Part shown: positions 6,348 through 37,797 of the stretch, one piece after another
How the letters are laid out: every line of letters starts with the position of its first letter
Numbering within the stretch: position 1 is the stretch's first letter
Virus record (IMG/VR): IMGVR_UViG_3300028416_000006
DNA: 64,000 nt
Source: a virus
Reading direction: 5' to 3' (one strand)
Program-made: the position numbers and the translations under genes
The notes under the pieces: generated by a model
Database searches by the model: none
The model's input: the letters and a program-made list of their open reading frames with translations, nothing else
What the model was told of the DNA's origin: nothing

Positions 6348-6962
6348 TCAATTATCGAGTTCTTGAAGCGTTATACAGGTTTCCATAGTCATTCTAAGCA
6401 TATCACTGTATGCTAACTTGTATAACATCATAGTTTCTTCACTGTTTGTGAATATAGTGGGTGGTTGTGCTAATCTATTAATTGTTCCAAAGTAGGAACC
6501 ATATGAGGTGGATACAATTCTATTCTCACCTTTGGGAAAGTGTTCATATACCCATTGAATCATTTTTACACTTTCTTCACGGGTTGTATTCTTGTCCCAA
6601 TTATGCCATGCAGTTACTTTGTGCTTGTATCTGTTAAACCATAACTTGTTGCGTATAACTACTTTTCTATCACGCTTATGTAATAGTTCTCTATGCATTT
6701 CATTTAACGGTTGAGTTATTTCTTCTACTTCAAAATTGTTTAATACATCTTGTACAATTTCTGTATTTGATGTATATAAGTTACAATCATATTCATGCTT
6801 GCTTCTGTATATTTTTACTACTCTGTATTGTAGTCTTGCTAGAGAATCAAACTTATCGTATTTAAAACGGAAGTTGCGTGGTATTTTTGTTATTTTAAGT
6901 CGTGTATCAAAGTATCTATAAAATACAGTTTCTGTAGGCAGTACTGTTATATTATTTTCCAT
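6348..6962 (-). CDS. hypothetical protein
   Basis: 204 aa ORF coupled to clpA. Confidence 0.6.
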   Translation of the reverse strand: MENNITVLPTETVFYRYFDTRLKITKIPRNFRFKYDKFDSLARLQYRVVKIYRSKHEYDCNLYTSNTEIVQDVLNNFEVEEITQPLNEMHRELLHKRDRKVVIRNKLWFNRYKHKVTAWHNWDKNTTREESVKMIQWVYEHFPKGENRIVSTSYGSYFGTINRLAQPPTIFTNSEETMMLYKLAYSDMLRMTMETCITLQELDN

Positions 6963-9210
6963 TAATAGTTAGTGCGTCTTTTTTCCAATCTAGATCCAGT
7001 GTAAAGTCTTTATTGTGATCTAGCAAGTGTTTTGCTAACGGAAGTTTTACAGTTTCGTTGATTAGTCTTGCTAACGGTCTTGCACCCATTGCCGGATCGT
7101 ATCCTTTATCTTCTAGCATTGCTACTAATTCAGGCCCCCAATTAATTACAATATGTCTACCTTCTACATATGTTTCAAGTTCACCTAAGAACTTAATAAC
7201 AATACGCTTCATGTCGTTTCTTGTTAGTGCATTAAACTTAACAACACCATCTAGTCTGTTACGGAACTCTGGTGCAAAGTAATTGTTTACTGCATCGTCT
7301 ACTGCTTTTGCATTATATGTTTCTTCATTAAAGCCAATGCTTTTAACTGCCGCGTCTCTGGCTCCAAGGTTACTTGTCATAATAACAATAGCGTTCTTGG
7401 CACTTACTACTTTACCTGTACTTGATGTAATTGTACCTTCATCTAATAAACTTAACAATACGCTCATTAAATCTGGGTGTGCTTTTTCTACTTCGTCCAA
7501 TAATAACACACAATTAGGATTATCTTCTAATTGGTTAATAAGTAAACCATCACCTGCTTTACCATCACCGTGTCCTACATATCCTGGAGGTGAGCCTATT
7601 AGTTTTGATACTGTATGGCGTTCTTGATACTCTGCCATATCATATCTACATAGTTTCATACTCATTGACTGTGCTAGACGTTTAGCAAGTTCTGTTTTAC
7701 CTACACCTGTTGGACCTGTAAGCAAATAACTTGCAATAGGTTTAATAGGATCTTTAAGTCCTGCCATGCTAACTGTAATACTGTCAACTACTTTGTCAAT
7801 TGCCGTTTGTTGACCGAATACTGTGCTTTCTAAAAACTCTCTAACTTCTGAGTGCTTTTTATTTGTTGATTCGTCTTCTGCTTTTCCTAAATGTTCTTTT
7901 GGAATACCAGTTAGTCTTGCCACCTCTGCTTTAATTTCATCTTCGCCTAATATATCTAAGCGTTCTTCTGGTGGTAATATTCTATTAAATGCACATGCTC
8001 TATCAATAATATCAAATGCTTTATCTGGAAGTTTCTTATTAAAGATATATTGATTACTTAATTCAACTGAAAGATCTGCTGCTTCTGGTCTAATAGTAAC
8101 ATCGTGAAATGCTTCATATGATATTAGCGAGTTATAAACAACTTCTTTTGCGTCTATTAAGTTAGGTTCTGATACAACAACTTTTGTAAATCTACGTGCT
8201 AGTGCTGTTTCTTTTTCAAATACTTTTCTATATTCTTCATCTGTTGTAGCACCAATTACTTTTAGTTTACCATTGCTTAACGCTGGCTTTAACATATTGC
8301 CTGCATCCATAGTACCATTTGTACTACCTGCACCAATAATTGTGTGTATTTCGTCCACAAACAAAATAATATTAGGCTCTTGTATTAATGCTTCTGCTAA
8401 TTGCTTCATGCGTTCTTCAAAGTCGCCTCTGTATTTTGTACCGGCAACTAATTTAGTCATATCTAATTCCCACACAACCTTATCTTTAATAATATCAGGA
8501 ACATGTCCTTCAACAATAAGTTTTGCCAGTCCTTGTACAACTGCTGTTTTACCAACGCCACTTCCGCCTGTTAAAATAGCATTAGACTTTTTCTTTCGTG
8601 CTACTGCTTGTACTAATTCTTTTAATTCGTGTCTACGACCAATTAAGTCATCATACTCATCATATGCTTCGTTCATGTTAGTACAAAACTGTGCTAACAC
8701 ATCTCTAGGTGTCATTGCACCTTGTTGTCTACGAGGATCTGCTCCAATAACATCTGAAGGTCCAAAAATTTGTTCATTCTCTTGTGCTTGTGTTTCTTGC
8801 ATCCAACCAATAACTTTGTTTTTGCTAAGACCCATTTGCTCTGCGTACTGTGCCGCTACACTGTTTTCTTCACCTAGTATGCTTAATACTAAATCTAATT
8901 GGTTAAGATGTTTCTTGCCTTGAAATAATGCCTGTGTTAATGCTCTATTAAATACTCTTTCAAGCATTTGTGTTTTAAAAGGGTTTGGTTCTTCATTGTT
9001 GTCTTTGACTAGTTCTGCACAATGCTTCTCTAAATATTCTACTAATGCAATTTGTAAACTTTCTGCATCAGCGTTTACTTCGTAACACATTGCAATTACC
9101 TGTGGGTCATCTAAAATAACTGCTGCTAAATGTTCAATAGTTACGTATTCGTGTTTTAATTTCTTTGCTAAATTGATAGCAGTTATTACAATTTTTTCAA
9201 TATCAGTCAT
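6952..9210 (-). CDS. clpA: ATP-dependent Clp protease ATPase subunit ClpA
   Basis: Clp N-domain (HEYVTIEHL), two AAA+ modules (GVGKT twice, KYRGDFEER, GYVG), IGF loop, no ClpB middle domain. Confidence 0.9.
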   Translation of the reverse strand: MTDIEKIVITAINLAKKLKHEYVTIEHLAAVILDDPQVIAMCYEVNADAESLQIALVEYLEKHCAELVKDNNEEPNPFKTQMLERVFNRALTQALFQGKKHLNQLDLVLSILGEENSVAAQYAEQMGLSKNKVIGWMQETQAQENEQIFGPSDVIGADPRRQQGAMTPRDVLAQFCTNMNEAYDEYDDLIGRRHELKELVQAVARKKKSNAILTGGSGVGKTAVVQGLAKLIVEGHVPDIIKDKVVWELDMTKLVAGTKYRGDFEERMKQLAEALIQEPNIILFVDEIHTIIGAGSTNGTMDAGNMLKPALSNGKLKVIGATTDEEYRKVFEKETALARRFTKVVVSEPNLIDAKEVVYNSLISYEAFHDVTIRPEAADLSVELSNQYIFNKKLPDKAFDIIDRACAFNRILPPEERLDILGEDEIKAEVARLTGIPKEHLGKAEDESTNKKHSEVREFLESTVFGQQTAIDKVVDSITVSMAGLKDPIKPIASYLLTGPTGVGKTELAKRLAQSMSMKLCRYDMAEYQERHTVSKLIGSPPGYVGHGDGKAGDGLLINQLEDNPNCVLLLDEVEKAHPDLMSVLLSLLDEGTITSSTGKVVSAKNAIVIMTSNLGARDAAVKSIGFNEETYNAKAVDDAVNNYFAPEFRNRLDGVVKFNALTRNDMKRIVIKFLGELETYVEGRHIVINWGPELVAMLEDKGYDPAMGARPLARLINETVKLPLAKHLLDHNKDFTLDLDWKKDALTINGK

Positions 9211-9883
9211 TTTTCCTTAACCTCGTTATAAATTCTTCCATGTTATTACTATTTAAGTAAGGTATGTCTACCTTAATATGTATCCTTAAATTGCCCTTTC
9301 TTTTACTCTTTCTATTGTATAACCCATGTCCCTTTAGCACTATTATACTTCCTGTCACTGTATCTATTGGAATATCAATTTCACAGCGTTCTCCTGTTGG
9401 TGTCATTATCATAAATGAATTTAGTTTCATTACATCAATGACATCCAATGTCTTATACATTATAATATTATTTCCCGATCTTGTAAAGACTTTATTTGCT
9501 TTTTCTTTAACATTTATTATATATTTTTTTCGCTTGTCGGTTATTTTAAACTTATCACCTGCTAGTACGCCTGCTGGAATATTTACTTTTAAATATAAAT
9601 CTTCTTCTTCGTCAATTTTAATATAATCATTGACACCAGTAATTTGTTGTTCAATGGTTAATGCTAAATCTATCATCTGCACATTTACTGATTTTACAAT
9701 TGGAATATGATTCTTTTTTTGAATTTCTTCATATGCATCACTTATAGCTAGCCAGTCGGCGATCGTTCCGCCCTTATCTGGATGATTTTTTAGAGCTAAT
9801 TTTTTGTATGCTAGTTTGACCTCTTTTAGTGTAGCACCCGGTTCTAGGCCAAGAATAAACCAAGGGTTGTTCATTTTCTTCAT
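9203..9883 (-). CDS. DnaJ-class co-chaperone (J domain plus C-terminal domain, no Zn finger)
   Basis: HPDKGG motif; C-terminal GxG...GNL pattern. Confidence 0.85.
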   Translation of the reverse strand: MKKMNNPWFILGLEPGATLKEVKLAYKKLALKNHPDKGGTIADWLAISDAYEEIQKKNHIPIVKSVNVQMIDLALTIEQQITGVNDYIKIDEEEDLYLKVNIPAGVLAGDKFKITDKRKKYIINVKEKANKVFTRSGNNIIMYKTLDVIDVMKLNSFMIMTPTGERCEIDIPIDTVTGSIIVLKGHGLYNRKSKRKGNLRIHIKVDIPYLNSNNMEEFITRLRKND

Positions 9884-9928
9884 CGTAGTATTTATTGACA
9901 TTATGAAGAGCCTTAAACGTTAGTGTTT

Positions 9929-10378
9929 TTAATTAAGAAATTTATCGAGTATTCCTGTTTTTTCAACAGGAACTTCTTTGTTTTTGCTGTTGTGGTCATC
10001 TATATTTTTTTCTGTTTTTTCGTAGTATTCTTTGTATGCTTCAATAATTGCTTTTTGTTGTGATAACAATTTAATTATATCTGCCATGTTTAATGAAAGT
10101 TGCTCATAGCCTTCTGTTGTTAATGCATATATAACTACAGGTTCGCCATCTGCTTGTAACTTATCAAACACCTGGCCCAATGCATCTGGTGTAATAATAT
10201 CCCAATCAGCATCTCTTAATTCTAGTGTACCCGTTGCAGGTAATACTAGTGCTGGCTTTTCGATAGGCTCTGCTTTATATGAAATTACCTGTGGTGTAGT
10301 TGCACAACTACTTAGGAACGTAGTTAGGATTAGCAAGCTCAGGACATTCAGTATTGGCTTTTGATTTTTTTGTAACAT
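9929..10378 (-). CDS. o-spanin-like lipoprotein
   Basis: Lipobox LSSC; overlaps the upstream i-spanin-like gene. Confidence 0.65.
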   Translation of the reverse strand: MLQKNQKPILNVLSLLILTTFLSSCATTPQVISYKAEPIEKPALVLPATGTLELRDADWDIITPDALGQVFDKLQADGEPVVIYALTTEGYEQLSLNMADIIKLLSQQKAIIEAYKEYYEKTEKNIDDHNSKNKEVPVEKTGILDKFLN

Positions 10379-10781
10379 TGATTTCTTTCTCCGTTAATGG
10401 TGAACCGCTTAGTATCTCTATACATCTTGCTACGTTGTTACTGGCTTTGTCGATTATTTTTTCAACTAATCCAGGTCTTGCTTGTGCAAGTTGACCTAAG
10501 TCATGTTCGCTTAGTTTTTCTTCAAGTGTATCAACACGTGATTGTGCTGATGCAAATTCTTTGCTTACTTCATTAAATTGTTTTTGTACTTCTGCTAAAT
10601 CTTTTTGTACTGATACAAATGCGGCCTGTGAAGCTTCTGCGGCTTGTTCGGCAGTTGCGGCGTTTGTGGCATATACACGAATTTGTTCTTGTGTGTATGT
10701 GTAATACTTCCACGCACCTAATCCTACTGCACCGAGTACAGCAGTCATTATAAGAAGTAATTTAAGTTTTCCTAATATCAT
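10308..10781 (-). CDS. i-spanin-like protein
   Basis: N-terminal TM, coiled coil, C-terminal Cys residues; overlapped Rz/Rz1-type arrangement. Confidence 0.65.
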   Translation of the reverse strand: MILGKLKLLLIMTAVLGAVGLGAWKYYTYTQEQIRVYATNAATAEQAAEASQAAFVSVQKDLAEVQKQFNEVSKEFASAQSRVDTLEEKLSEHDLGQLAQARPGLVEKIIDKASNNVARCIEILSGSPLTEKEINVTKKSKANTECPELANPNYVPK

Positions 10782-10785
10782 AATA

Positions 10786-11253
10786 TTAATACTTGTTTAA
10801 AAATTTAATGCGTTCCGATATTGCTTGAGCTTCTGGGTTAGTGGCCATTTCATAATCGTAACTACTTGAGTATACACTACTTTCAAAGTTTTGTCTATTC
10901 CAATTTGAAGGCATATCGCTTTTGTATGCATTAAACATAAAGCTGTTTGCTGATTCGTCTACACGAGTGATATCTTTTAGTATGTTATCAATTGAATCAA
11001 ATAACTTACTGTTTCGTTGTAATTCAACAAAGACTTTGTAATTTCCGTCTTTGTTTGGGCCTGGTGACACATCTACATCAATACAGTCATGTCCTGTTTC
11101 AATAAACAGACTTAAATCTTTTGCTGGATCGGCATCTTTAACTTCAAATGCTAATACTACAACATTCTTATCATCGCCTATTTTACTTTTGTATTGATCT
11201 ACACTAAATGTTGATTGTACTAAATCTATTAAATCATTGTTTTGTATGCTCAT
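10786..11253 (-). CDS. hypothetical protein
   Basis: ORF in coupled run. Confidence 0.6.
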   Translation of the reverse strand: MSIQNNDLIDLVQSTFSVDQYKSKIGDDKNVVVLAFEVKDADPAKDLSLFIETGHDCIDVDVSPGPNKDGNYKVFVELQRNSKLFDSIDNILKDITRVDESANSFMFNAYKSDMPSNWNRQNFESSVYSSSYDYEMATNPEAQAISERIKFLNKY

Positions 11254-11777
11254 AAGTCTAATCCTTCGTCTGCTGCAGATATTTCATCTGTGTATGCTTG
11301 CTCTACTGCATTACTATCAATACCTTGATCATCAACACGCAATTTAGCTGCTTCTACATCATTCATATATTTTCTAGGCATTACTATTGTTACTAACCAA
11401 ACAGGCTTAATAACTCTTTTAGCACGAGTTTGTCCTGGTCTTTTACCGTCTGCTCCATCTTGTCCTTCGCTGTCGTCTGGACTTCTTAGTCTAGCAGCCG
11501 TAATGTATTCTTCTTCTGCAAAGTATACTTTACAACCATTCTTTGTTAAACGCATTGCACCTTCTGGATCTGGCATTTGATTCTTATAATACATTAATGT
11601 AACTGTTACCCAATATCTATCAATGTGTGGACCTTCTACAATTTCGCCTTCCATCCAGTTTTTATATGCATAAATGTTGGCTGTATCCATTACACGCTCA
11701 AAGTCCATTAGTGTTTCTAATGCACTATCTCGACTAGTGTTTGCTCTTAGGTTGTTTAAAATATAGTTTTGATCCAT
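11250..11777 (-). CDS. hypothetical protein
   Basis: SD and late motif upstream. Confidence 0.65.
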   Translation of the reverse strand: MDQNYILNNLRANTSRDSALETLMDFERVMDTANIYAYKNWMEGEIVEGPHIDRYWVTVTLMYYKNQMPDPEGAMRLTKNGCKVYFAEEEYITAARLRSPDDSEGQDGADGKRPGQTRAKRVIKPVWLVTIVMPRKYMNDVEAAKLRVDDQGIDSNAVEQAYTDEISAADEGLDL

Positions 11778-11925
11778 TGTGAATTCCTTTAATATATACT
11801 TATTTATGACAGTTAGGTTGTAGTGTCAACTTTTATTCTTTTTATACTAACTTAACTTAATTCTCAAAGTGTTAAATACATATGAGCAGGCAGTAAAGGG
11901 CCCAAGCATCCAAATAGGAGAACAC

Positions 11926-12660
11926 ATGGCTAAACGAGCTCGAAAAACAAAAAAACAACAATATCAACAAGAACATTCACAGGATAAGATAGTCCAACTT
12001 AACGCACACAGAAAAAGACATGTACAAATTGTTCCACGTAATCTCGCACAAGAAGATTATGTAGAGCTTCTTGACGATGAAAAACGTAACATTGTGTTTG
12101 CAATGGGACCTGCAGGTACAGGTAAAACATTGCTAGGCGTGTTAGCGGCTATTGACGCATACAATTCAAACTTATGTAGTAAAATTGTAATTACGCGACC
12201 TGCTGTTAGTGTTGATGAACAACATGGTTTTCTACCAGGAACACTAGTAGAAAAAATGGCACCATGGACAAGACCTATATTTGACGTAATGGAAGAATAT
12301 TGGTCACCAAGCACAATCGAAAACATGATTAATGAGAACATTATCGAGATTGCACCACTGGCATATATGCGTGGTAGAACTTTTAAGAATTCTTGGATTA
12401 TAGCAGACGAAATGCAAAATGCGACACCATCTCAAATGAAGATGTTATTAACACGCATTGGCGAGAATTCTAAAATTATTGTAACAGGAGACTTAGCACA
12501 ACACGACCGTGGATTCGAAGACAACGGTCTTAAAAATTTCGTAAAACTACTAGAACAAAGAGGTAGTGATATAATTGGAGTTGTCAGCTTTACCAAAGGT
12601 GATGTTGAACGACATGTCGCTGTTACTGAAGTTCTAACTATTTACGGAGACGAAGAATAA
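11926..12660 (+). CDS. phoH: PhoH-like ATPase
   Basis: GPAGTGKT, GFLPG, YMRGRTF, DEMQN, TGDLAQ; start moved to ATG after AGGAG. Confidence 0.95.
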   Translation: MAKRARKTKKQQYQQEHSQDKIVQLNAHRKRHVQIVPRNLAQEDYVELLDDEKRNIVFAMGPAGTGKTLLGVLAAIDAYNSNLCSKIVITRPAVSVDEQHGFLPGTLVEKMAPWTRPIFDVMEEYWSPSTIENMINENIIEIAPLAYMRGRTFKNSWIIADEMQNATPSQMKMLLTRIGENSKIIVTGDLAQHDRGFEDNGLKNFVKLLEQRGSDIIGVVSFTKGDVERHVAVTEVLTIYGDEE

Positions 12661-12661
12661 A

Positions 12662-13243
12662 TTAACTGTTGACAATCATGTCAACTATATCGGCCCAATT
12701 GCCTGCCATTTTTATTCCGTCCATTAAGACTTCATCTTTGTTATGATCGTGTTCTAATAGAATACTTTTTAATCCTAACTTAGCCCCACACTCTGCATTT
12801 TCGAGTTTGTCCTCGATCCAAAATGCATCACTTCCAACATACGGTGCTAATGCTTCGTCTTTGTCAGCACCTGTATCTAAGCATAGCACTTCTTTAAAAG
12901 TACCTTTACCAAATACATTCTCTAAGTTGTATTTCCGTAAACGAATTGCTTTTTTATCTAAACTCAAACTAGTAATACAATGAAATCGGTATCCATGTTC
13001 GTATAGTTTAGCAACACCACTTCGTGCATCACGGAATGCTTTTAAATAGCCCATCCATGCACTTTCGTTAAATATTTTAATTAGTTGTTTACCTTGAGAC
13101 TTTTCAAACCCATACTGCTGACTAATATCATACATTCCATGTGCTACTTTAACATGTCCATGTGATTCCATCCATTTATGAAACGCACTTTCCCAATCAA
13201 GTAGTACACCATCGCAATCTGTAAGTATGATTTTATCTTCCAT
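12662..13243 (-). CDS. HAD-superfamily phosphatase/nucleotidase (T4 30.2-like)
   Basis: DCDGVLLDW and WIEDK motifs. Confidence 0.8.
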   Translation of the reverse strand: MEDKIILTDCDGVLLDWESAFHKWMESHGHVKVAHGMYDISQQYGFEKSQGKQLIKIFNESAWMGYLKAFRDARSGVAKLYEHGYRFHCITSLSLDKKAIRLRKYNLENVFGKGTFKEVLCLDTGADKDEALAPYVGSDAFWIEDKLENAECGAKLGLKSILLEHDHNKDEVLMDGIKMAGNWADIVDMIVNS

Positions 13244-13276
13244 CTTTATTCCTCTTTTTTCTAACATTATGTATAT

Positions 13277-13307
13277 ATTATACGACAAGATGTCTTGGTT
13301 GTCAACC
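13277..13307 (-). promoter_or_regulatory. sigma70 promoter with AAGACATCTT spacer (copy 1)
   Basis: TTGACA-ACCAAGACATCTTGTCG-TATAAT. Confidence 0.85.
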
Positions 13308-13309
13308 TT

Positions 13310-13618
13310 TTATTTCATATCAATTAGGTCTTGATATTCCCAAACTGCTTTCTCATACTCACCTGGCCAACCACCATATACTCCCATTTCTAGACTGTTT
13401 TTCATCCAGAGCAAACTTTTATCTTCGCCTTCAAAGGATTTATTTCTTTCTATTTTGTGTAAGTATTCTGGCGTTAGTCCGTGTAGTGTAGTTAAGTCAT
13501 GCATATCAATGTTTGGTGCAAACTTCATCTTAACTATCATTGCTTGTTCGTCAGTCATTACAACCGTGTCGTTTTTGCCTTTGATAGTAACACTCCAAAC
13601 TTTTGTCATTACCACCAC
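13310..13618 (-). CDS. hypothetical protein
   Basis: ORF in coupled run. Confidence 0.5.
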   Translation of the reverse strand: MVVMTKVWSVTIKGKNDTVVMTDEQAMIVKMKFAPNIDMHDLTTLHGLTPEYLHKIERNKSFEGEDKSLLWMKNSLEMGVYGGWPGEYEKAVWEYQDLIDMK

Positions 13619-13818
13619 CCCAACACTCTACCGTTACCTGTAATAATCATTACACAAGTTAATACATGAAGAACAATCCAAAATGTTCTAAATGCTAATG
13701 CACGTCTTACATCTTTTTGTGTGATGGGCAAAAACTCAGGCTTATCCTCATCGTTGACACCAATTGGCATCCCAACTGTCCTTGCCCAAACTTTTAAAAA
13801 TCTTCTTTGTCCTGACAT
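13609..13818 (-). CDS. small membrane protein
   Basis: One TM; TAATG coupling. Confidence 0.55.
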   Translation of the reverse strand: MSGQRRFLKVWARTVGMPIGVNDEDKPEFLPITQKDVRRALAFRTFWIVLHVLTCVMIITGNGRVLGWW

Positions 13819-22126: not shown

Positions 22127-22177
22127 AATATTTCCTTGATTTTATTATTATATACTTTAACGCTAATTGCATTATAG

Positions 22178-22466
22178 TAGCAAGTTGATTCTGTTGCCAG
22201 GTCCAACTTGCAAAAACCCCTACGTGCTTAAAACTAAGCCGCTAATGCCATTTCTGGCGAATAATTGTCATTTGCAATTATAAAGTTTGTTCGCGGTAAC
22301 GGCGCTTACATCCCGGCAACTCCCTTTACCTATTAGCTACCCAGTCGAACCTATTTCAACCCCATCAAAAACACACTATGAACTACTAGTAACAATGTGT
22401 TTATGGTGGAGTTGTCCGGTACCGCCCCGGAGTCCTGAATCAGCGTTGAGTAAATTTCAACATTGC
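22178..22466 (-). ncRNA. ssrA: circularly permuted two-piece tmRNA, alphaproteobacterial type
   Basis: Acceptor piece ending CAACTCCACCA (3' end 22404) with GGCGGTA T-loop; coding piece starts GGGGTTGAAATAGGTTCGAC at 22363; G3:U pair; tag ANDNYSPEMALAA* at 22275-22234. Confidence 0.93.
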
Positions 22467-22489
22467 GTATTATTTATGATAACACAAAA

Positions 22490-22900
22490 TTAAGTTATGT
22501 CAACCGGTTTTGCGTTTATTTGTTGTTTTTTTCCAGAATAATCTCTAACTGCGGCTTTAATGGCATCTTCTGCCAATACGCTACAGTGTATCTTAACTGG
22601 TGGCAATGCAAGTTCTTCTACTATTGTTGTGTTTTTAATCTCTTGTGCTTGATCTAGTGTCATACCTTTAAGCATAGTTGTTACCATACTTGAACTAGCA
22701 ATTGCACTTCCACAACCGTATGTTTTGAATTTTGCATCTTCAATAATGCCATCTTCTGTTACTTTAATTTGTAAACGCATTACATCACCACATGCAGGTG
22801 CGCCTACCATTCCAGTTCCGATATTATCTTCCTTGGGGTCGAACTTACCTACATTTCTTGGATTATTGTAATGGTCTAGCACTTTTTCGCTATATGCCAT
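22490..22900 (-). CDS. iscU: Fe-S cluster scaffold IscU
   Basis: GAPACGD, KTYGCGSAIASSS, LPPVKIHCS. Confidence 0.95.
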   Translation of the reverse strand: MAYSEKVLDHYNNPRNVGKFDPKEDNIGTGMVGAPACGDVMRLQIKVTEDGIIEDAKFKTYGCGSAIASSSMVTTMLKGMTLDQAQEIKNTTIVEELALPPVKIHCSVLAEDAIKAAVRDYSGKKQQINAKPVDIT

Positions 22901-29671: not shown

Positions 29672-29679
29672 TTAATTGT

Positions 29680-29982: not shown

Positions 29983-29996
29983 TTTTTTACCTTATA

Positions 29997-30419
29997 TTAG
30001 TCAATGTTAATAGTTCGTGGTTTCTTTTCGTCTGGAATATTTTGTTCCAATGTAACTACTAAGATACCGTTATCTAGCTTCGACGATGTTACTTCTACAT
30101 AATCAGCTAAACTAAATTCTCTTGTGAAGTTTCTAGTTCCGATGCCTTTGTGTAAATATTCAATCTCTTCCTCGATTGGTTTCTTTTCAGCGTTAATTGA
30201 AAGTGTATTACCGTCTTGTTGGATTTTTATTTCGTCTTTATCAAAACCTGCTACTGCTAGGCTAATAGAATAGCTACTGTCACTTTCCTTTACAATATTG
30301 TAAGGTGGGTAACCGCCTGTGTTTGTTGTGAAAGCATTTGCCATCTCATCAAACATACTATCAAATCCTATTGTAGTTTTATAAAAATCTGGAAGATTTA
30401 GTGTTGTTAATCTAGTCAT
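29997..30419 (-). CDS. small heat shock protein Hsp20 (IbpA-like)
   Basis: IGFD, YPPYNI, LAVAGF, YLHKGI, LDNGIL. Confidence 0.95.
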   Translation of the reverse strand: MTRLTTLNLPDFYKTTIGFDSMFDEMANAFTTNTGGYPPYNIVKESDSSYSISLAVAGFDKDEIKIQQDGNTLSINAEKKPIEEEIEYLHKGIGTRNFTREFSLADYVEVTSSKLDNGILVVTLEQNIPDEKKPRTINID

Positions 30420-30508
30420 ATCTTTTCTCCTTATATTAAGCAAGATTATTTAGAACCCTTTCGGCGTTCTATGTATACGGTAGGAATCAGTCCTGTTGTA
30501 TACATTGT
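30420..30508 (-). promoter_or_regulatory. ROSE-like RNA thermometer leader of hsp20
   Basis: Two upstream hairpins, then TCTTGCT positioned to pair with the AGGAGA SD. Confidence 0.65.
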
Positions 30509-30547
30509 TATTTATCTACATTTATAGACAAATTCAGTTATAACGTA

Positions 30548-30814
30548 TTAGTATAGTCTTTTCTTTACGATTGAATCTTTAGCTATTTCTCTACGTCTTC
30601 TAGCTCGGCCTGCCGCCTCTGCTTTAAGTCTTTTTTCAGTATTACTAACAAAGTATCTGCGTTCGCGTACTTCGTTCATAAGTCCAGTTTTCATAACTAA
30701 CTTCTTAAGTTTTCTCATAGCTTGTTCTACATTGCCATTTCTAACTTCTACAGATAGTCCAGGACCAAACTGAGGTTTTTCATTACGTTTATTATTTTTG
30801 TTATAGTTTCCCAT
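30548..30814 (-). CDS. rpsU: ribosomal protein bS21
   Basis: VEVRNGNVEQAMRKLKK...RERRYF...EKR. Confidence 0.88.
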   Translation of the reverse strand: MGNYNKNNKRNEKPQFGPGLSVEVRNGNVEQAMRKLKKLVMKTGLMNEVRERRYFVSNTEKRLKAEAAGRARRRREIAKDSIVKKRLY

Positions 30815-30822
30815 GTTTACCT

Positions 30823-31353
30823 TTATTGTATTTTACCAGATACACGATTGTTCTGTGATGATATTTGCTCGTATTCTACTTCTAATAGATAAGCAAATGT
30901 ATTTAGCAATTCCCTTGCAAGGTCTTGCCTCCCACGTTCTCTACCACGCAAAACAACTGTAACTGTTACTTTGTTATTTTTATCCAAAAATTTACGAGCT
31001 GCTTTAGCTTTGGTCTCTAAATCATGTGTATCTATGTTTAGTCCCATACGCACTTCTTTGGTCTCTACAACGCTTTCTCGTTGCTTCTTCTTTGCCAGTT
31101 TTTCTTTTTGCTTTAATGAATACAAATGCTTGTTTAGATCAATTATTTTACAAACTGGTGGATCTGCCTTTTCGGCTATCAACACTAAATCTAAATACAG
31201 TGACTTTGCTTCATCTAAAGCATCTTTCAAAGACAGCACCTGGCTTTCACCGTCTGGAAAGTTTACTCTAACTTCTTTTGCTCTTATTCGATCATTTGCG
31301 ATTACAAATGGGCCTTTTGTACGTTGTTTATATCCTTTGTTTCTATTCTGCAT
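30823..31353 (-). CDS. infC: translation initiation factor IF-3
   Basis: NDRIRAKEVR, DLVLIAEKADPPVCKI, KEVR, HDLETK, RGRE. Confidence 0.92.
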   Translation of the reverse strand: MQNRNKGYKQRTKGPFVIANDRIRAKEVRVNFPDGESQVLSLKDALDEAKSLYLDLVLIAEKADPPVCKIIDLNKHLYSLKQKEKLAKKKQRESVVETKEVRMGLNIDTHDLETKAKAARKFLDKNNKVTVTVVLRGRERGRQDLARELLNTFAYLLEVEYEQISSQNNRVSGKIQ

Positions 31354-32560
31354 TGTCACCTTTGATAAATTGTGGCTGTGCGTTTCTAGAAATAACTTGT
31401 TCATTTATAATAATTTTGCGTACTCCCTTTTCATATAATTCTGGCAATTGATATTGAGTTTCTAATAGTGCTTGATCTAATATTTTACGTAAACCTCTAG
31501 CACCTAATTCTTCATCAATGGCAGTTTTTGCAATTTGTTCCAATGCTGTTATTGTAAACTCTATTTGTATTTTGTCAAGTAGAAAAAGCTCTTTTATTTG
31601 ATCAATTATACTACCCACTGGTTCAGTTAGTATGCGTACAAGATCGTTCTTATTTAACGGTCTTAAGACGTTTACAGACGGTAATCTACCTACAAATTCC
31701 GGTATAAGTCCATACTTCACTAAATCACGTGTTTGTAAGTGCTTTTCCCATTGTTCTACATCAGTGTCTAAACCGTCGTTAAATCCTATCTTTGCTTTGC
31801 CGAGCCGGTTAACCACAACATCTTGTAGGCCAACAAAGGCTCCACCTACTACAAATAGTATGTTACTGGTGTCTATATTCACCTTCTCCGGGTTATGTTG
31901 CGGTTTGTTCGGAACCGCTAGTATAGTACCTTCCATGAGCTTTAAAAGGCTCTGTTGTACGCCTTCTCCTGAAACGTCTCTACTCAGGCTAACATAGTCA
32001 TTACGTTTTGCTTTTTTATCAATCTCGTCAACATATATAATACCATGCTCTGTGCGTTCTTGATTGTAATTTGCTGCTTGAAATAATTTGTGTATTAGAA
32101 CTTCTGCATCGTCGCCTGCATATCCACTTTCAGTAATAACAGTTGCATCAGTAACTACCATTGGTACACCTAAAAAGTCTGCAAGTGTTTGTGCTAACAA
32201 TGTTTTACCAGTTCCTGTAGGACCGCATAATAGTACATTGCTTTTTTGTAATTTTGTTTTTGTAGTTGTTGATATTCTTTTATAGTGATTGTATATTGCT
32301 ACACTCAAAGTCTTTTTTGCATAATCTTGACTAATTACGTGTTTGTCTAAATCGTTATGTATTTCTCTAGGAGTAGGAACTTCATATTTTTTACCATAAT
32401 TTTTATGTATAGCTTCTACTTTCTTTTCTTTAACAATGCCGTAGCAAAGTTCAACACAATCGCTACAAATGTGAGTATCATTTTCACCTGCTAGTAGCTT
32501 TTTTACTTGTGTTGCGTCTTTGTTACAAAAATTGCATATGGTAGGTTTGCTAGACTTCAT
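31343..32560 (-). CDS. clpX: ATP-dependent Clp protease ATPase ClpX
   Basis: C4 Zn-binding domain, GPTGTGKT, DEIDK, RDVSGEGVQQ, IGF, GLIPEFVGR. Confidence 0.95.
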   Translation of the reverse strand: MKSSKPTICNFCNKDATQVKKLLAGENDTHICSDCVELCYGIVKEKKVEAIHKNYGKKYEVPTPREIHNDLDKHVISQDYAKKTLSVAIYNHYKRISTTTKTKLQKSNVLLCGPTGTGKTLLAQTLADFLGVPMVVTDATVITESGYAGDDAEVLIHKLFQAANYNQERTEHGIIYVDEIDKKAKRNDYVSLSRDVSGEGVQQSLLKLMEGTILAVPNKPQHNPEKVNIDTSNILFVVGGAFVGLQDVVVNRLGKAKIGFNDGLDTDVEQWEKHLQTRDLVKYGLIPEFVGRLPSVNVLRPLNKNDLVRILTEPVGSIIDQIKELFLLDKIQIEFTITALEQIAKTAIDEELGARGLRKILDQALLETQYQLPELYEKGVRKIIINEQVISRNAQPQFIKGDNAE

Positions 32561-32999
32561 TAAAATATTCTGGGCTCATCTGTAGTTTTATATAGTTGTT
32601 TATATCATCTAATGATCTTACAACTAGATTAGTGCCTGTAGCATTTATTAATTTTACAGTTTCTCTTCGTTTGTATTTATCGCTGTAAAATAACACTGTA
32701 TTTTCTTCATCTTTTGATTTTAAAAGTCCCGACATAATATCTTCCCATGCACACGTATCAACATCGATAACCATAAAGTCGCATGTTTTAGAAACATTCC
32801 ACATCCATGGTAATGTTTCTGAATTAGTTTTTTTATTTTGTACTAAGAACACAATGCTTGTTGCAATAAACTTTTCAAATAATTCTTTTACTGATGCAAT
32901 AAAAGTTTCATTGGTACTTGAAATAAGAATACTTATTCCATGTTCTGTCATATAAAGGTCTGGGGGTGTTACAGTGTAACTACTGTTATCAATTTTCAT
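32550..32999 (-). CDS. hypothetical protein
   Basis: ORF coupled to clpX. Confidence 0.6.
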   Translation of the reverse strand: MKIDNSSYTVTPPDLYMTEHGISILISSTNETFIASVKELFEKFIATSIVFLVQNKKTNSETLPWMWNVSKTCDFMVIDVDTCAWEDIMSGLLKSKDEENTVLFYSDKYKRRETVKLINATGTNLVVRSLDDINNYIKLQMSPEYFNEV

Positions 33000-34466
33000 T
33001 TAATTTTTCTTTTTTCGTTGTAATTTTTTTGACTTATCGTTTAGATCGTATTGTAATTGTTCTATTAGGTATTTTCTGTTGCCGTGTGTATCAATTGTAT
33101 ATTCTTCACCTTTTGAATCCGTATGCACTACGTCTTCTTCATATATTTTATTTTGAACAACAGGTTTTTTGGAAGTCTTGTTGTCTTTTTTATTACCCAC
33201 AACATCTTTCTTAACGTCGGTGACATCTTTATCATTGTTAAATTTTGTAGGTTTTTCTTTTTTTTCATGTGTTCCTTTTGTTGATTTGCGTAATCCTAAT
33301 CCAGATATTCCTGCAAGAACAAGTACAACTGCTAAAGGATCAAATACAAATACAAGTACTAGTATAACATATCTTACTGTTTCTTCCAAGATATTTTTAC
33401 CAGGTTCTTGTCCATAAACTAATTCTGCAATATACTTAACTGGACCAACTTCTGCTTCTAGTTTTCTACTTTCGCCTTGTAGTGTATATTTTGTAGTATA
33501 AAGTGATTCCAACTTATCTTCAGAATCAACAATTAAATTACGCTGCGTCTCAATTAATACTGTATTGTCTTGTTGTTGACCTTGTCCAAGTTGAGCTCTA
33601 AGTCTAGTGATTAGGGTGTTAGAGTCTGCAATCTGTTGTTCTGCTAACATTCTAAGTCTTTTAATTTCCTGTCTAGCAGTTTTTGTTACAGTATCTTCTT
33701 CTGTCCTAACTTTATTTAGCTGATAAACAGCTATGCGTCTAGCCTTGGCATTATCTTCTTTAAACTTCTTTAATGCTTCTCTAGTATTATACCCTATTCT
33801 TCCATCTTGTGCAACTCCTATTAGGCCTTGCATTTTCTTTACTTCGCCGCTAATTGAATATTCGTCTAACAATTCTAACTTTTTATCAATGTTACTTATT
33901 TCTCTTTCGTATGGAGCAGTAGCATTTTCTTTGTCAGATGCTTGTTTATCAATAATAGCATTCTGTTCGTCAATTGATGGTTGTACTCCATCGTATGCTG
34001 AATTAATTCTTTCTTGTTCTGTACGTATTTTTTCTTGTATTTCAATGTCTTTAGTATCGTCTACTTGTTCAAGTTTAACAATTTTATCTTCTGACTTAGT
34101 AATAATTAATTTATTTCTTACTATGCTTTCTTCTATACGCTCAAGTTGGGCAACGTTCTCACTAGCCGCACTAGTTTGTTCAATGTGTGCTTTAGATAAA
34201 AATCCAAATATGCCCATGCTCGTAATAAACATAAGCATTATCACGGCTACAGTGAGATACGTTTTAATTAAAAATGGAGCTGATTTCCAGTTCATGTGCA
34301 ACCAGACAGCTGATGTCAACTTGCCTACTTCTAGCACAGACCCCATAATAATAATCGGTATAACGGCACTGGCAAATATAGCCACAAGTCCAACAATGCT
34401 GTAGTAGGCCGCCACAGCACTTATAGATAGTGCAACTAAAACTGTCCAGTAACCGAATAACCTCAT
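33000..34466 (-). CDS. multi-TM coiled-coil membrane protein
   Basis: About three N-terminal TM, long coiled coil, C-terminal TM. Confidence 0.7.
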   Translation of the reverse strand: MRLFGYWTVLVALSISAVAAYYSIVGLVAIFASAVIPIIIMGSVLEVGKLTSAVWLHMNWKSAPFLIKTYLTVAVIMLMFITSMGIFGFLSKAHIEQTSAASENVAQLERIEESIVRNKLIITKSEDKIVKLEQVDDTKDIEIQEKIRTEQERINSAYDGVQPSIDEQNAIIDKQASDKENATAPYEREISNIDKKLELLDEYSISGEVKKMQGLIGVAQDGRIGYNTREALKKFKEDNAKARRIAVYQLNKVRTEEDTVTKTARQEIKRLRMLAEQQIADSNTLITRLRAQLGQGQQQDNTVLIETQRNLIVDSEDKLESLYTTKYTLQGESRKLEAEVGPVKYIAELVYGQEPGKNILEETVRYVILVLVFVFDPLAVVLVLAGISGLGLRKSTKGTHEKKEKPTKFNNDKDVTDVKKDVVGNKKDNKTSKKPVVQNKIYEEDVVHTDSKGEEYTIDTHGNRKYLIEQLQYDLNDKSKKLQRKKKN

Positions 34467-34467
34467 A

Positions 34468-34818
34468 TTATTTCCCTATGTTATAACGAATTGCGAGACC
34501 TTCATCTACTAATAATTCGTTTATACAAACCTCGTTGTTGTCAACAACAACATAGATCTTTCCAAGTATACGACCATACTTGCCACGCTTGTTAAGTATA
34601 GTTTCTACTTTAAATTCTTTGTTCAATAAGTCCATTAAACGTTGCTTAACGTCAAGTCCTTTTTGTTTGATATCAACGTTTGTTGATCTACTATCAGGTG
34701 TGTCAATACCATACAACTTTAAACGTTGCTTAATAATGATATCGAAACCTAAATCAATTTCAATGTCCAAAGTATCACCGTTTATTACTCTTACTAATTT
34801 TGCTTTATATGTATACAT
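34468..34818 (-). CDS. thermonuclease (SNase) family
   Basis: RVINGDT, LYGIDTP, GKYGRILG, LVDEGLA. Confidence 0.85.
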   Translation of the reverse strand: MYTYKAKLVRVINGDTLDIEIDLGFDIIIKQRLKLYGIDTPDSRSTNVDIKQKGLDVKQRLMDLLNKEFKVETILNKRGKYGRILGKIYVVVDNNEVCINELLVDEGLAIRYNIGK

Positions 34819-34898
34819 AAAAAATTCCTTATCTAATATAAAAACAGTTAATACTTGAACTGCTTAATATTTATGTTATTTTTGGTGGTACTTAAATA

Positions 34899-35588
34899 CT
34901 ATGTTTTAGTATTCTTGTCTAACCATGCCTTAGCGGCTCTTTTAGTAGGTGGATCGTTTAAAAACTTCTGTACTTCTCTATATACGTTATCAAAGTTCTC
35001 TTTACGATCTGGGTCTTCTAACCCGCCACTATTGTCTATTACATGGAACTTTGCAGCTCCAAAGACTTGTTGGAATTTCATTATGTTTTGTTGAACTCGC
35101 TGCCACATAACAGTTACCATATCTGTTGGTATTGTTCTAGCTCTTGCAGCATTACGTTCTTGTGCTACCTCTTCACTTGTGTTAACAAATAACATCATTG
35201 TATCGTAACCTAAATCACCCAATTGTTTTTTGGCTACTGATACTTTAGATACATCCTTGCCGGTGCCATCAATTACTAAACCTAAGCGACCATCTAGATA
35301 TAAGTCTTCTCTTGTTTTAGTAATTTCTTTAGCACGGTTACGGATTTCTTGCCCCTTGTTGCTTCCAACAACTTCAGGGTCACTTAAATCAATATTGTGT
35401 TTTTTAGCAAGATACTCATAAACGTCATCACTATTAAGAGGTTTTAATCCACCACCAGTTAATAGTTTTTGAGCCACATAGCTTTTACCCGAGCCAGGAC
35501 CACCGGCTAGGAATACTGCTTTAAATATGTGAGGATCGTTTGGACCTTCTAGTATTTGCTCTGTTTCTAATATATCATGTATCTTCAT
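34899..35588 (-). CDS. P-loop kinase (zeta toxin/AAA_33-like)
   Basis: GGPGSGKS, NSDD, IDGTG, RNAARAR lid. Confidence 0.8.
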   Translation of the reverse strand: MKIHDILETEQILEGPNDPHIFKAVFLAGGPGSGKSYVAQKLLTGGGLKPLNSDDVYEYLAKKHNIDLSDPEVVGSNKGQEIRNRAKEITKTREDLYLDGRLGLVIDGTGKDVSKVSVAKKQLGDLGYDTMMLFVNTSEEVAQERNAARARTIPTDMVTVMWQRVQQNIMKFQQVFGAAKFHVIDNSGGLEDPDRKENFDNVYREVQKFLNDPPTKRAAKAWLDKNTKT

Positions 35589-35623
35589 ACTATTATTTAT
35601 ACAAATATAGTATTACAAATATA

Positions 35624-36211
35624 TTATGTTTTCCGAACAACAACTTTATCAGCTAGGCCAAAATCTACGGCTTCTTGTGCTGACATAAAATTATCACGTT
35701 CCATAGCTGCACTAAGCTCTTCGTAAGTTTTACCTTTTGAGTTATGCTTCTCGTACATGCGTGTAAGATTTTCTTTCATCTTAATAATTTCTTTTACTTG
35801 GATTTCCATGTCTGTTGCTTGTCCGCCTGCTCCACCGCTTGGTTGGTGAATCATTGTACGTGAATTTGGCAATACTAAACGTTTGCCTGGTTTTCCTGCC
35901 ATAGCAAGGAAACTACCCATACTACATGCTTGTCCCATTACAATTGTACTTACTGGAGATTTAATAAACTGCATTGTATCATATATGCCTAATCCTGCGG
36001 TTACTACACCACCTGGACTATTAATATAAAAGTTAATATCTTCTGCACTATTTTGTGATTCTAAAAATAGCATCTGTGCAACTACTAAATTTGCACTATG
36101 GTCATTAACTTCGCCGTTAAGCATTACAATACGATCTTTTAGCAAACGACTATAAATGTCATATGCACGTTCGCCTCTGCCTGTACTCTCAATTACTGTT
36201 GGTATTATCAT
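35624..36211 (-). CDS. clpP: ClpP protease
   Basis: [23 protein letters not shown] (Ser), MIHQP (His), ERDNF (Asp). Confidence 0.97.
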
Positions 36212-36226
36212 TTTATCTCCTGTGTG

Positions 36227-37081
36227 TTAATCTTTATATCTTACTTGTAAGTCCATAATTATACTATAACGATCACCTAGATCGTCTTGTGAATTATGTT
36301 GCATTCCATGATATGTAGGTATCCATCCACTCTGTTCTGAATGTTCTCCATGCATAATTAACATTTTATTATCTGCTAGTTCCATAATCATATCTTGTTT
36401 ATTTGTTTTTGTATTCTTTGCCCAAAACTCTGAATAATTTTCACCTAAATGTAATCCTGCTAGAGTTTCATCACAATGCTCATTTCCAAATCGTATAGAG
36501 TTATGTTTTCTATGTTCTGTACGATTTTTTTCTGTAGCACTAGGAGTATTATACTTGATAATCATCAATTTGTAAAGAATTAAATCTTCCCATTTTTCTG
36601 ATTGATCTGAATAATTTTCATACAAGTAGTGTTCTAATACTGATTTAAAATCTCTATGCATTTCTACAAAGTAGCTAAATTCTTCAGGAACTGGTTCTTT
36701 AATTTCTTCTTCTGTCCAGGAATAGAAATATATCTTTTTACGTTCTACTGTCTCTGATGATTTTCCAAGGTTGTTATTTCGTGTCCATGTTTCTGGACCA
36801 GACATAAAGTCATTGTCCCAACTAAAACAATTACCAGAGTATATATGCGAATAACTTTTATTTGGCATATTTGGGTCATTTGTTTCTTCAATATTTTGTT
36901 CAATATTTATTTTTTTAAAAAAATCTTCATCTACTGTTTCATGTAATTTTTCTGCCATTGCAAAACGATTTGCATATTTTGTAGATAACAATGTAGAATC
37001 AGCAAGTGGCCATGTACCTGCTTGCTGATAATCTTGTAATTCTTCGTATGTGAATAATTTATGTGTTGGTGTTGTTTCCAT
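36227..37081 (-). CDS. possible 2OG-Fe(II) oxygenase-fold protein
   Basis: HCD...PTYHG...RYSII pattern. Confidence 0.5.
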   Translation of the reverse strand: METTPTHKLFTYEELQDYQQAGTWPLADSTLLSTKYANRFAMAEKLHETVDEDFFKKINIEQNIEETNDPNMPNKSYSHIYSGNCFSWDNDFMSGPETWTRNNNLGKSSETVERKKIYFYSWTEEEIKEPVPEEFSYFVEMHRDFKSVLEHYLYENYSDQSEKWEDLILYKLMIIKYNTPSATEKNRTEHRKHNSIRFGNEHCDETLAGLHLGENYSEFWAKNTKTNKQDMIMELADNKMLIMHGEHSEQSGWIPTYHGMQHNSQDDLGDRYSIIMDLQVRYKD

Positions 37082-37274
37082 TTGGTACCTTCTGTATTTC
37101 TTGTATACCAGTTGATTTATCTTCGACTATTTTAATATAGCCTCCATTCTCAAGTAGTTGTAGAGTTGATTCCATACCTTCATTAACACCCTGTTTGTAT
37201 CCAGTTCGTTGACTAAAGTATGCACAGGCCATTGTAAACAAGCCTAGTATAACCATTAAATCTAATCCTATCAT
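37059..37274 (-). CDS. small membrane protein
   Basis: N-terminal TM. Confidence 0.55.
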   Translation of the reverse strand: MIGLDLMVILGLFTMACAYFSQRTGYKQGVNEGMESTLQLLENGGYIKIVEDKSTGIQEIQKVPNGNNTNT

Positions 37275-37278
37275 AATA

Positions 37279-37797
37279 CTATTTACCTCCGTTAACTACA
37301 CCAACTGCTATAGGATATAAAGGATGTAAATGTACTTTATCCATAACGCTTATAAGGTGTGCTTTTTCTTTTAAAAACACTTTAGCAAAACTTGGATCAT
37401 TTGCTTCAATGTCATCGCTGTTGTCTATGAGATCAGCAAGTTTAACAATTTGTGCTTCTCTACTTGCTTGACTCAAACGCTCTGCATCAATTGCCTTACG
37501 CTTTGCACGGTTTCCATCTTCTGGCTTGCTAACATCAGTAAGCTCAACAACCAACTTGTGGATCTTCCAACCAAACTCTTCAGCAATCATCTCACTGGTT
37601 ACATATGTATCTTCCAACACATCATGTAACAATGCGGCCGCTATCATCTCTTCGGTGCCTTCGTAATCGGCAACCATTTTAGATACCCTGCGTGGGTGAA
37701 CTATATAGTCCACTCCACTGTATTTGCGTTTTTGTCCAATTGCAGCGTGAGCCACACTAGCGAACAAATCTGCTTTTTGAATAACGTCCATTTTCAT
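37279..37797 (-). CDS. HD-domain hydrolase, small alarmone hydrolase (SpoT-HD/Mesh1)-like
   Basis: AH..QKRK...YIVHP, ALLHDVLEDT, VKLADLIDN. Confidence 0.85.
   Translation of the reverse strand: MKMDVIQKADLFASVAHAAIGQKRKYSGVDYIVHPRRVSKMVADYEGTEEMIAAALLHDVLEDTYVTSEMIAEEFGWKIHKLVVELTDVSKPEDGNRAKRKAIDAERLSQASREAQIVKLADLIDNSDDIEANDPSFAKVFLKEKAHLISVMDKVHLHPLYPIAVGVVNGGK

Follow-up and report, generated by a model that had tools for sequence, protein, structure and literature searches.

The 64,000-nucleotide (nt) stretch of viral DNA analysed here (IMG/VR record IMGVR_UViG_3300028416_000006; the whole stretch is referred to as the window below) encodes the unfoldases ClpX and ClpA, the peptidase ClpP, the adaptor ClpS, the small heat-shock protein Hsp20, a J-domain protein, initiation factor 3 (IF3), ribosomal protein bS21, a SpoT-like HD hydrolase and a two-piece transfer-messenger RNA (tmRNA). 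We favor, with a probability of roughly 0.6, the view that these genes constitute a host-dependent supplement and retargeting kit, inherited as two old blocks, rather than a self-sufficient machine. The combination is real and conserved but not new, having already been annotated in cultured giant phages, and the system is dependent on the host, not autonomous, because a working tmRNA needs SmpB, which was found neither in the window nor in five related contigs.

Gene identities in the window are based on open reading frame (ORF) listing and on ARAGORN, Rfam, Pfam, NCBIfam and PHROG. All ten items that a preliminary description of this DNA had named are present and intact at the positions given in Table 1, all on the minus strand (Pfam, NCBIfam, Rfam and ARAGORN), and clpX-infC-rpsU-hsp20-clpS are indeed consecutive, with spacing that ranges from a small overlap to ~100-130 nt. 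ClpX exceeds both equivalog cut-offs of NCBIfam (NF003745, 485.6 vs. 359; TIGR00382, 441 vs. 370.75) and, compared with solved ClpX, keeps the zinc finger, Walker A (GPTGTGKT), YVDEIDK, sensor-2 (GARGLR) and the pore-2 loop RDVSGEG. ClpA is colinear with Escherichia coli ClpA (1ksf) over residues 10-748 (E 1.2e-163) and has no M-domain; Walker motifs are present in ring 1 (GGSGVGKT/LFVDEIH) and ring 2 (GPTGVGKT/LLLDEVEKA), as are the pore loops KYR and GYVG, and its best NCBIfam model is TIGR02639 at 746.3 bits, below the 993 cut-off (587 on the ClpB model). Both ATPases keep the IGF loop, as had been claimed: KIGFN of ClpX aligns to the IGF of solved ClpX, and the IGF within KSIGFNE of ClpA stands opposite the IGL of E. 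coli. Of the 40 ClpX sequences aligned (the window, 37 IMG/VR relatives, and the phages Atu_ph07 and Phosso), 39 have the IGF. The Ser-His-Asp triad of ClpP is likewise intact in alignment to 8r05 and is kept in 32/32 relatives; the N-terminal axial loop (IIPTVIE) is present as well.

It is important to note that the window is viral DNA, neither cellular nor chimeric, and part of an uncultured marine jumbo myophage with a T4-type capsid, a member of the PA5oct / Atu_ph07 / Rak2-like supergroup. That the named genes are all of bacterial type, and that several exceed NCBI bacterial equivalog cut-offs, could speak for a cellular contig or a phage/bacterial chimera, the very possibility about which the preliminary description had been wary. 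However, GC content is even along the 64 kb (32-39.5%), nearly all genes lie on one strand, and phage genes are interleaved across the whole window. Further, scanning IMG/VR with ClpX yielded 56 loci with the block in the same arrangement, some of them on contigs with capsid genes: on both G004 (192 kb, CheckV completeness 52%) and G005 (124 kb, CheckV completeness 34%), the clpX block is accompanied by a T4-type capsid protein (Gp23 type, PF07068, 278 bits) and a prohead protease (gp21-type S77, PF03420), and these completeness values imply a genome of ~360 kb. In 185,579 prokaryote species genomes, the same kind of scan encountered ordinary bacterial ClpX only, none closer than 47%, which rules out a cellular or prophage origin; we thus give a cellular or chimeric contig practically no credence. 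Near-identical DNA to the window was not present in the phage collection. The tmRNA type, together with the hosts of Atu_ph07 and Phosso, suggests an alphaproteobacterial host.

The evidence for an old viral ancestry of these genes is their conserved order. We compared the window proteins by tblastn with all of the loci and counted over distinct relatives with enough flank (35 downstream and 27 upstream). The relatives show the order clpP-(kinase)-nuclease-orf488-orf149-clpX-infC-(rpsU)-(hsp20)-clpS-(GATase)-cytidylyltransferase-GMP reductase, which persists to ~45% ClpX identity. In all 35, clpS lies no more than 4 kb downstream of clpX (the clpX-to-clpS span being 1.7-3.3 kb), with infC between the two in 33; hsp20 is present in 31 and rpsU in 21 of these relatives, and clpP lies within 6.5 kb upstream of clpX in 25/27. 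This grouping exceeds chance since the same order has been kept in dozens of diverged contigs, and conservation of the block under selection is supported. Alternatively, the genes might be independent, host-derived helpers that top up host functions and are not coupled to each other, their order being a frozen accident of descent. Such accessories are consistent with the dispersal of the corresponding genes of Sinorhizobium phage Phosso over 17 kb among unrelated genes, with the absence of rpsU from about one-third and of hsp20 from about one-tenth of the relatives, and with the unrelated nucleotide-metabolism genes between clpP and clpX. We consider this alternative very unlikely, however, given that marine, soil and Pseudomonas phages share the order even where ClpX identity has fallen to 39-45%, that neighboring genes of the marine clade touch or overlap, and that the bacterial ClpX, ClpA, ClpS and ClpP are known to interact physically.

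The same arrangement recurs, to varying degrees, in cultured phages. Pseudomonas phage vB_PaeM_PA5oct (MK797984, Arenbergviridae; genes EST35_0255-0260, 0272 and 0294-0298 were compared) has, like the window, a compact clpX-rpsU-two small genes-hsp20-clpS run, phoH on the opposite strand ahead of dnaJ-clpA-structural genes, and a DNA ligase and clpP in the neighborhood of the block, at identities to the window of 39% (ClpX), 55% (ClpP), 40% (ClpS) and 41% (ClpA). Unlike the window, its block is without IF3, its clpP lies downstream of clpS with the ligase between them, and its host is gammaproteobacterial. Agrobacterium phage Atu_ph07 (MF403008; 490-kb genome, soil alphaproteobacterial host) keeps the window's order on one strand as clpX-infC-(record origin)-three small genes-hsp20-tdk-clpS, in a looser block (~6 kb with inserts) from which clpP is ~27 kb away, and has dnaJ-clpA-three small genes-tail fibre where the window has dnaJ-like-clpA-two small genes-tail-fibre-like. 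Seven Clp-family genes and DnaJ have been listed for this phage, which has ClpX, ClpA, ClpP, ClpS, Hsp20 and IF3 (Attai et al. 2018, PMC6102473); a tmRNA above Rfam thresholds was not found in it, nor is one given in Table 1 of PMC11242549.

By ClpP, ClpA and ClpS, the closest named phages are Phosso and Atu_ph07, whereas the cultured phages nearest to the window's full gene list are the Sinorhizobium phages Phosso and AP-J-162. Phosso (PV764938; GC 47%) encodes ClpA, ClpX, ClpP, ClpS, IF3, S21, a DnaJ-like protein and an alpha-type tmRNA (108 bits), in the order clpX-infC...S21...clpS over ~17 kb and with clpP and clpA more than 200 kb away; one gene, for a peptide deformylase, separates its dnaJ and clpA, which overlap in the window. 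The Phosso alpha-tmRNA match (349553-350242) is 690 nt long, about twice the usual length, with no ARAGORN call, and there may be an insertion between its two pieces. For AP-J-162, six Clp proteins, a clpX beside IF3, Hsp20, DnaJ, S21, L7/L12, GroES and a tmRNA have been reported, with the S21 gene described as similar to one of Atu_ph07 (PMC11242549). In the Rak2-like phage GAP32, infC adjoins clpS. Parts of the set have been discussed before as well: ClpP, ClpS, ClpA, ClpX and IF3 for group 2.2 jumbo phages (Iyer et al. 2021, PMC7824862), IF3, S21, tmRNA and SmpB for huge phages (Al-Shayeb et al. 2020, PMC7162821), and two-piece tmRNAs for marine myophages, where phage tagging of host proteins was proposed (Buchholz et al. 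2022, PMC9004378). The tmRNA of Melnitz and other pelagimyophages (PMC9004378) resembles that of the window in being an alpha-type permuted ssrA of a marine phage behind a sigma-70-like promoter; unlike the window phage, these phages are T4-like and smaller, and Clp genes go unmentioned in PMC9004378. With regard to co-occurrence in jumbo phages, which the preliminary description had proposed to survey, the same order is found in PA5oct, Atu_ph07 and Phosso, and infC-clpS in GAP32. The idea that the ensemble is a new combination is refuted by the gene sets of Atu_ph07, AP-J-162, Phosso and PA5oct.

The ensemble had also been taken for an autonomous machine, even though SmpB, SspB and DnaK were noted as unseen in the window. 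The latter observation holds, as the SmpB, SspB and HSP70 families had no match among the ~75 window ORFs (Pfam), and SmpB (PF01668), Hsp70 and SspB were also not found in the five related contigs (G001-G005, 86-205 kb), while a PF01668 control search was positive in 10 bacteria. SmpB is the obligate partner of tmRNA, Hsp70 the partner of J-proteins, and SspB an adaptor; their absence from the window and from these contigs, as far as found, contradicts the notion of autonomy.

The tmRNA itself appears sound. It matches RF01849 at 116.7 bits (above 50) and RF04321 at 120.9 bits (above 47), and the tag codons are directly readable in its sequence, with the tag ending in Ala-Ala. A promoter-like, sigma-70-like TTGACA-17-TATCAT (22476-22504, minus strand) is situated directly after iscU and before the tmRNA. 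Among relatives, the tmRNA always follows iscU, the order iscU-tmRNA-...-tRNA-Arg is kept, and the tag reads ANDNYSPEMALAA, ANANYEPEMALAA or ANNNYEPEMAMAA, variable in the middle and constant in AN.NY and A[LM]AA, a pattern that fits a working degron. The three nearest large contigs (G001-G003) carry the alpha tmRNA, clpA at 83-97% identity and the clpX block, whereas more distant members hold the clpX block without detectable tmRNA or clpA in fragments of 124-192 kb.

These results bear on the possibility of an integrated, host-independent circuit: host proteins would receive their tag from the phage tmRNA and be degraded by the phage's ClpXP and ClpAPS, with IF3 and bS21 acting to remodel the ribosomes. 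The intact catalytic and docking motifs, the canonical Ala-Ala end of the tag in every relative, and the co-occurrence of tmRNA, clpA and clpX block in the three nearest large contigs would all agree with such a circuit. Nonetheless, we find it quite unlikely, given the missing SmpB, SspB and Hsp70 and the residues lost from ClpX (below); in addition, the block of PA5oct without IF3, Atu_ph07 without a tmRNA above threshold, and the distant members without detectable tmRNA or clpA indicate that the parts come and go separately.

As to ClpX, six residues of the E. coli protein are critical for reading the ssrA tag, namely Y153, V154, T199, V202, R228 and H230 (Fei et al. 2020, PMC7652416). The window ClpX keeps the Tyr and V202, has Ala for V154 and Ser for T199, and lacks both R228 and H230, its RKH loop being three residues shorter and reading PNKPQHNPEK; its pore-1 loop is GYAG, as in 33 of the 40 aligned ClpX. 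The shortened RKH loop varies freely among the aligned sequences, GGRKHPQ occurring among IMG/VR members only in the most distant ones, and a GGRKN loop is found in two sequences, probably those of Atu_ph07 and Phosso; the loop of Atu_ph07 would then be of full length. By the E. coli and human precedents, we infer that the phage ClpX should read Ala-Ala tags poorly, and delivery of tmRNA-tagged proteins to the phage ClpX is unlikely, since the RKH loop has been lost in the ClpX of this clade. The interpretation of the genes as a phage proteostasis and translation toolkit stands with regard to phage DNA, intact parts and a conserved block, but not with regard to novelty, autonomy or the feeding of tmRNA products to the phage's own ClpX. 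Compared with the bacterial ClpXP/ClpAPS and ssrA-SmpB systems (E. coli, Caulobacter), the protein parts of the window are orthologue-like with working motifs and the tag ends in Ala-Ala; SmpB and SspB are not found, however, the RKH loop is lost, pore-1 is GYAG and the gatekeeper Met of ClpS is replaced by Gln, and, unlike bacterial orthologues, ClpA, ClpS, Hsp20 (IbpA models) and the J-protein fall below the NCBI equivalog cut-offs.

The loss of the RKH loop coincides with a clade-specific gene, orf149, whose 3' end overlaps the start of clpX by 11 nt and which stands upstream of clpX in 25/27 relatives. It has no Pfam, NCBIfam or PHROG match. Its hidden Markov model (HMM) matches are confined to the marine clade without the RKH loop, and by HMM it is not beside clpX in the RKH-bearing distant contigs, Atu_ph07, Phosso, PA5oct or GAP32. 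The AlphaFold2 model (predicted local distance difference test score 82, predicted template modelling score 0.80) has a flavodoxin-like fold, the best structural matches being a putative nucleoside deoxyribosyltransferase at Z 11.5 and, both at Z ~10, receiver and TIR domains; the acidic pair after strand 1 is absent, and nothing scored above 0.81 in the Atlas. On the basis of this model, a CpdR- or RssB-like adaptor is possible, and it is intriguing to hypothesize that the ClpX of the marine clade was retargeted, the short variable RKH loop, the GYAG pore-1 and orf149 having been gained together, although we regard this scenario as very doubtful. If orf149 were such an adaptor, the phage would command a ClpXP that follows a substrate code peculiar to the phage, and the still canonical ...ALAA tag would fall to host ClpXP or phage ClpAP. 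An SspB-, CpdR- or RssB-like adaptor has no family match in its favor, and the fold resembles receiver domains, TIR domains and the deoxyribosyltransferase about equally. Since the co-distribution with RKH loss amounts to a single evolutionary event, we rate the idea as a lead of low probability. A role in nucleotide metabolism is at least as likely, since genes for a nuclease, a kinase, a cytidylyltransferase and a GMP reductase surround orf149.

It is also possible that the main clients of the Clp ATPases, the J-protein and Hsp20 are virion proteins to be chaperoned or processed, dnaJ-clpA serving the tail fibre and adjacent structural proteins, and that host proteins are not the target. This morphogenesis role, which we hold to be unlikely, finds support in the tail-fibre or structural genes that lie immediately downstream of dnaJ-clpA in each of the window, Atu_ph07 and PA5oct, and virion assembly has been raised as a possible role previously (Iyer et al. 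2021, PMC7824862; Attai et al. 2018, PMC6102473). Against it, the ClpP is a true ClpP, at 300.7 bits on the NF001368 subfamily model (cut-off 249) vs. 111 on the head-maturation model (below its cut-off of 120); its score on TIGR00493 is 283, below 308.6. Relatives have, moreover, a separate T4 gp21-type S77 protease beside the capsid gene, and no assembly role is known for ClpS, IF3, bS21 or tmRNA. The model scores and the separate S77 protease also rule out that the window ClpP is a head-maturation protease, the label that one RefSeq record of Atu_ph07 gives to the copy of that phage. In about one-third of the related ClpP, which form one sub-clade, the catalytic His lies within MIHRV and the Asp within KFDTF, where the others have MIHQP and ERDNF; the triad is kept.

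The J-protein is a J-domain co-chaperone and not DnaJ proper, as judged from its domains: the HPD motif is present (KNHPDKGG) and kept in 4/4 relatives, but the zinc-finger domain of DnaJ is not matched (Pfam), only ~15 residues separate the J domain from DnaJ_C, and the score on the DnaJ equivalog TIGR02349 is 81 vs. a cut-off of 377. The nearest solved ClpS is that of Caulobacter (3dnj, E 7e-25); its NDD and His pocket residues are kept in the phage protein, with the gatekeeper Met replaced by Gln and a Tyr by Ser. The gatekeeper position alternates between Met and Gln over 38 relatives, and the protein stays below every NCBIfam ClpS equivalog cut-off (best 104.6 vs. 149), as Hsp20 does on the NCBIfam IbpA model (121.6 vs. 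212). By comparison, bS21 (TIGR00030, 45.4 vs. 28.95 bits) and IF3 (TIGR00168, 141.7 vs. 60) exceed theirs, and the basic N-terminal extension of bS21 is of a kind noted for huge phages (Al-Shayeb et al. 2020, PMC7162821). The listed IF3 ORF overlaps the end of clpX by 62 nt (31343-31404) and its family match begins at residue 36; translation probably starts at Met18 (31353), 7 nt past the clpX stop. The NCBIfam spoT_relA match of the HD hydrolase is limited to the hydrolase part, with the HD and ED residues in LLHDVLEDT, and its domain predicts a candidate small alarmone ((p)ppGpp) hydrolase.

The only sizeable gap of the block lies between rpsU and hsp20 (30420-30547; 104 nt going by the ORFs as listed, ~128 nt if hsp20 begins where it probably does) and contains a TATAAAT motif, a hairpin with a 15-bp perfect stem (30471-30505) and, ahead of the ribosome-binding site of hsp20, another short hairpin. 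These elements may represent a late promoter or an RNA switch of hsp20's own; a promoter/terminator scan of 28-38.5 kb gave no signal clearly above the shuffled background.

One inherited block comprises ligase...HD hydrolase-x-clpP-kinase-nuclease-x-x-clpX-infC-rpsU-hsp20-clpS, and the other phoH (opposite strand)...dnaJ-like-clpA...tail fibre, with the alpha tmRNA behind iscU in addition. Concerning assembly, substrates and timing, we infer the following model. Phage ClpX and ClpA would use their IGF loops to engage phage ClpP, and perhaps host ClpP as well, to form ClpXP and ClpAP-ClpS, which would sustain and redirect regulated proteolysis once host gene expression collapses. Hsp20 and the J-protein would, together with host DnaK, hold and pass on unfolded proteins; the Hsp70 of the J-protein must be the host's because no phage Hsp70 gene was found. 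IF3 and bS21 would join host 30S subunits and bias initiation toward phage mRNAs. The tmRNA, charged and delivered by host alanyl-tRNA synthetase, EF-Tu and SmpB, would free ribosomes stalled on broken mRNAs and add an ...ALAA tag, more likely read by host ClpXP or phage ClpA than by the phage ClpX without its RKH loop.

Several points weigh against this model of a host-dependent supplement. SmpB or DnaK could be encoded outside the window, the related contigs are only 24-56% complete, and the rules for the RKH and pore-1 loops derive from E. coli and human ClpX, so that their transfer to the phage protein may be uncertain. Further, interspersed unrelated genes extend the Phosso block to 17 kb, and hence tight linkage is not required for function; the order in common may owe more to inheritance than to co-operation. 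Finally, dnaJ-clpA is always beside structural genes, which could point to a role in assembly.

The remaining genes of the window are in agreement with a large phage (Table 1). Typical of such phages are PhoH, an endolysin (GH19, joined to a peptidoglycan-binding domain), an HNH endonuclease, ribonucleotide reductase, DNA ligase and the 13 tRNAs; radical-SAM enzymes, IscU, GMP reductase and a tail-fibre-like protein are encoded as well. Within the clpP-clpX interval, orf488 has no Pfam or PHROG match, but an alignment of 16 relatives displays invariant hydrophobic stretches and the protein is probably membrane-bound; orf284, upstream of clpP, has no Pfam match. Between 42281 and 51841 (minus strand), genes for small-molecule enzymes are interleaved with tRNA-Glu, Asn, Ala and Thr in what looks like a biosynthetic or amino-acid-modifying cassette of the phage. 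An RyR-domain protein (2371-2925, 32.7 bits) and an S-adenosylmethionine decarboxylase-like protein (61003-61377, 48.8 bits), both on the minus strand, are of types occasionally seen in large phages. No glutamine riboswitch in the window reached Rfam thresholds.

Table 1. Annotated features of the window, in order of position
Feature	Coordinates	Strand	Basis and remarks
Tail-fibre-like protein	3772..5931	-	phrog_9729 tail fibre, 6.5e-11; two genes downstream of clpA
ClpA-type two-ring AAA+ unfoldase, 752 aa	6952..9210	-	Pfam Clp_N, AAA, AAA_lid_9, AAA_2, ClpB_D2-small
Short J-domain co-chaperone, 232 aa	9203..9901	-	Pfam DnaJ 34.5 bits, DnaJ_C 62.9 bits; overlaps clpA start by 8 nt
PhoH	11869..12660	+	Pfam PhoH 232.5 bits; upstream of dnaJ-clpA, opposite strand
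Permuted alpha-type two-piece tmRNA	22143..22524	-	ARAGORN, tag ANDNYSPEMALAA; Rfam RF01849, RF04321
ClpS adaptor, 100 aa	29680..29982	-	Pfam ClpS 100.1 bits (cut-off 23)
Small heat-shock protein, IbpA-like (Hsp20)	29997..30443	-	Pfam HSP20 70.7 bits; probable ATG start 30419
Ribosomal protein bS21 (rpsU)	30548..30814	-	Pfam Ribosomal_S21 46.7 bits (cut-off 27); basic 20-residue N-terminal extension
IF3 (infC)	30823..31404	-	Pfam IF3_N 74.8 bits, IF3_C 74.3 bits
ClpX unfoldase, 405 aa	31343..32560	-	Pfam zf-C4_ClpX (53 bits), AAA_2
orf149, clade-specific 149-aa protein	32550..32999	-	
orf488, 488 aa	33000..34466	-	Conserved; hydrophobic N-terminal and central segments
SNase-type nuclease	34468-34818	-	Pfam; syntenic in relatives
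Zeta-toxin/AAA_33-type kinase	34899-35588	-	Pfam; syntenic in relatives
ClpP peptidase, 195 aa	35624..36211	-	Pfam CLP_protease 265 bits
orf284, conserved 284 aa	36227..37081	-	Directly upstream of clpP; syntenic in 25/27 relatives
Stand-alone SpoT/Mesh1-type HD hydrolase domain, 172 aa	37279..37797	-	Pfam HD_4 58.4 bits (cut-off 27.2)
ATP-dependent DNA ligase	38765..39916	-	phrog_114, 7.4e-63; upstream edge of shared neighborhood
FAD/NAD oxidoreductase	42973-43755	-	
SPASM domain protein	43879-44271	-	
Radical-SAM protein	44268-44966	-	
AMP-binding fragment	47351-48106	-	
Dehydrogenase	48103-49134	-	
Tryptophan-halogenase-like flavoenzyme	49139-50515	-	
Class IV aminotransferase	51005-51841	-	
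13 tRNAs	window		ARAGORN

In conclusion, the window opens no new kind of system; rather, the jumbo phages known to carry Clp, chaperone, IF3, bS21 and tmRNA genes of their own are joined by a widely sampled and abundant marine branch, represented by 56 IMG/VR contigs. The gene order described here is among the more stable features of the PA5oct / Atu_ph07 / Rak2-like supergroup and a useful marker for it, and the cultured relatives represent stand-ins for finding what phage ClpXP and ClpAPS degrade.

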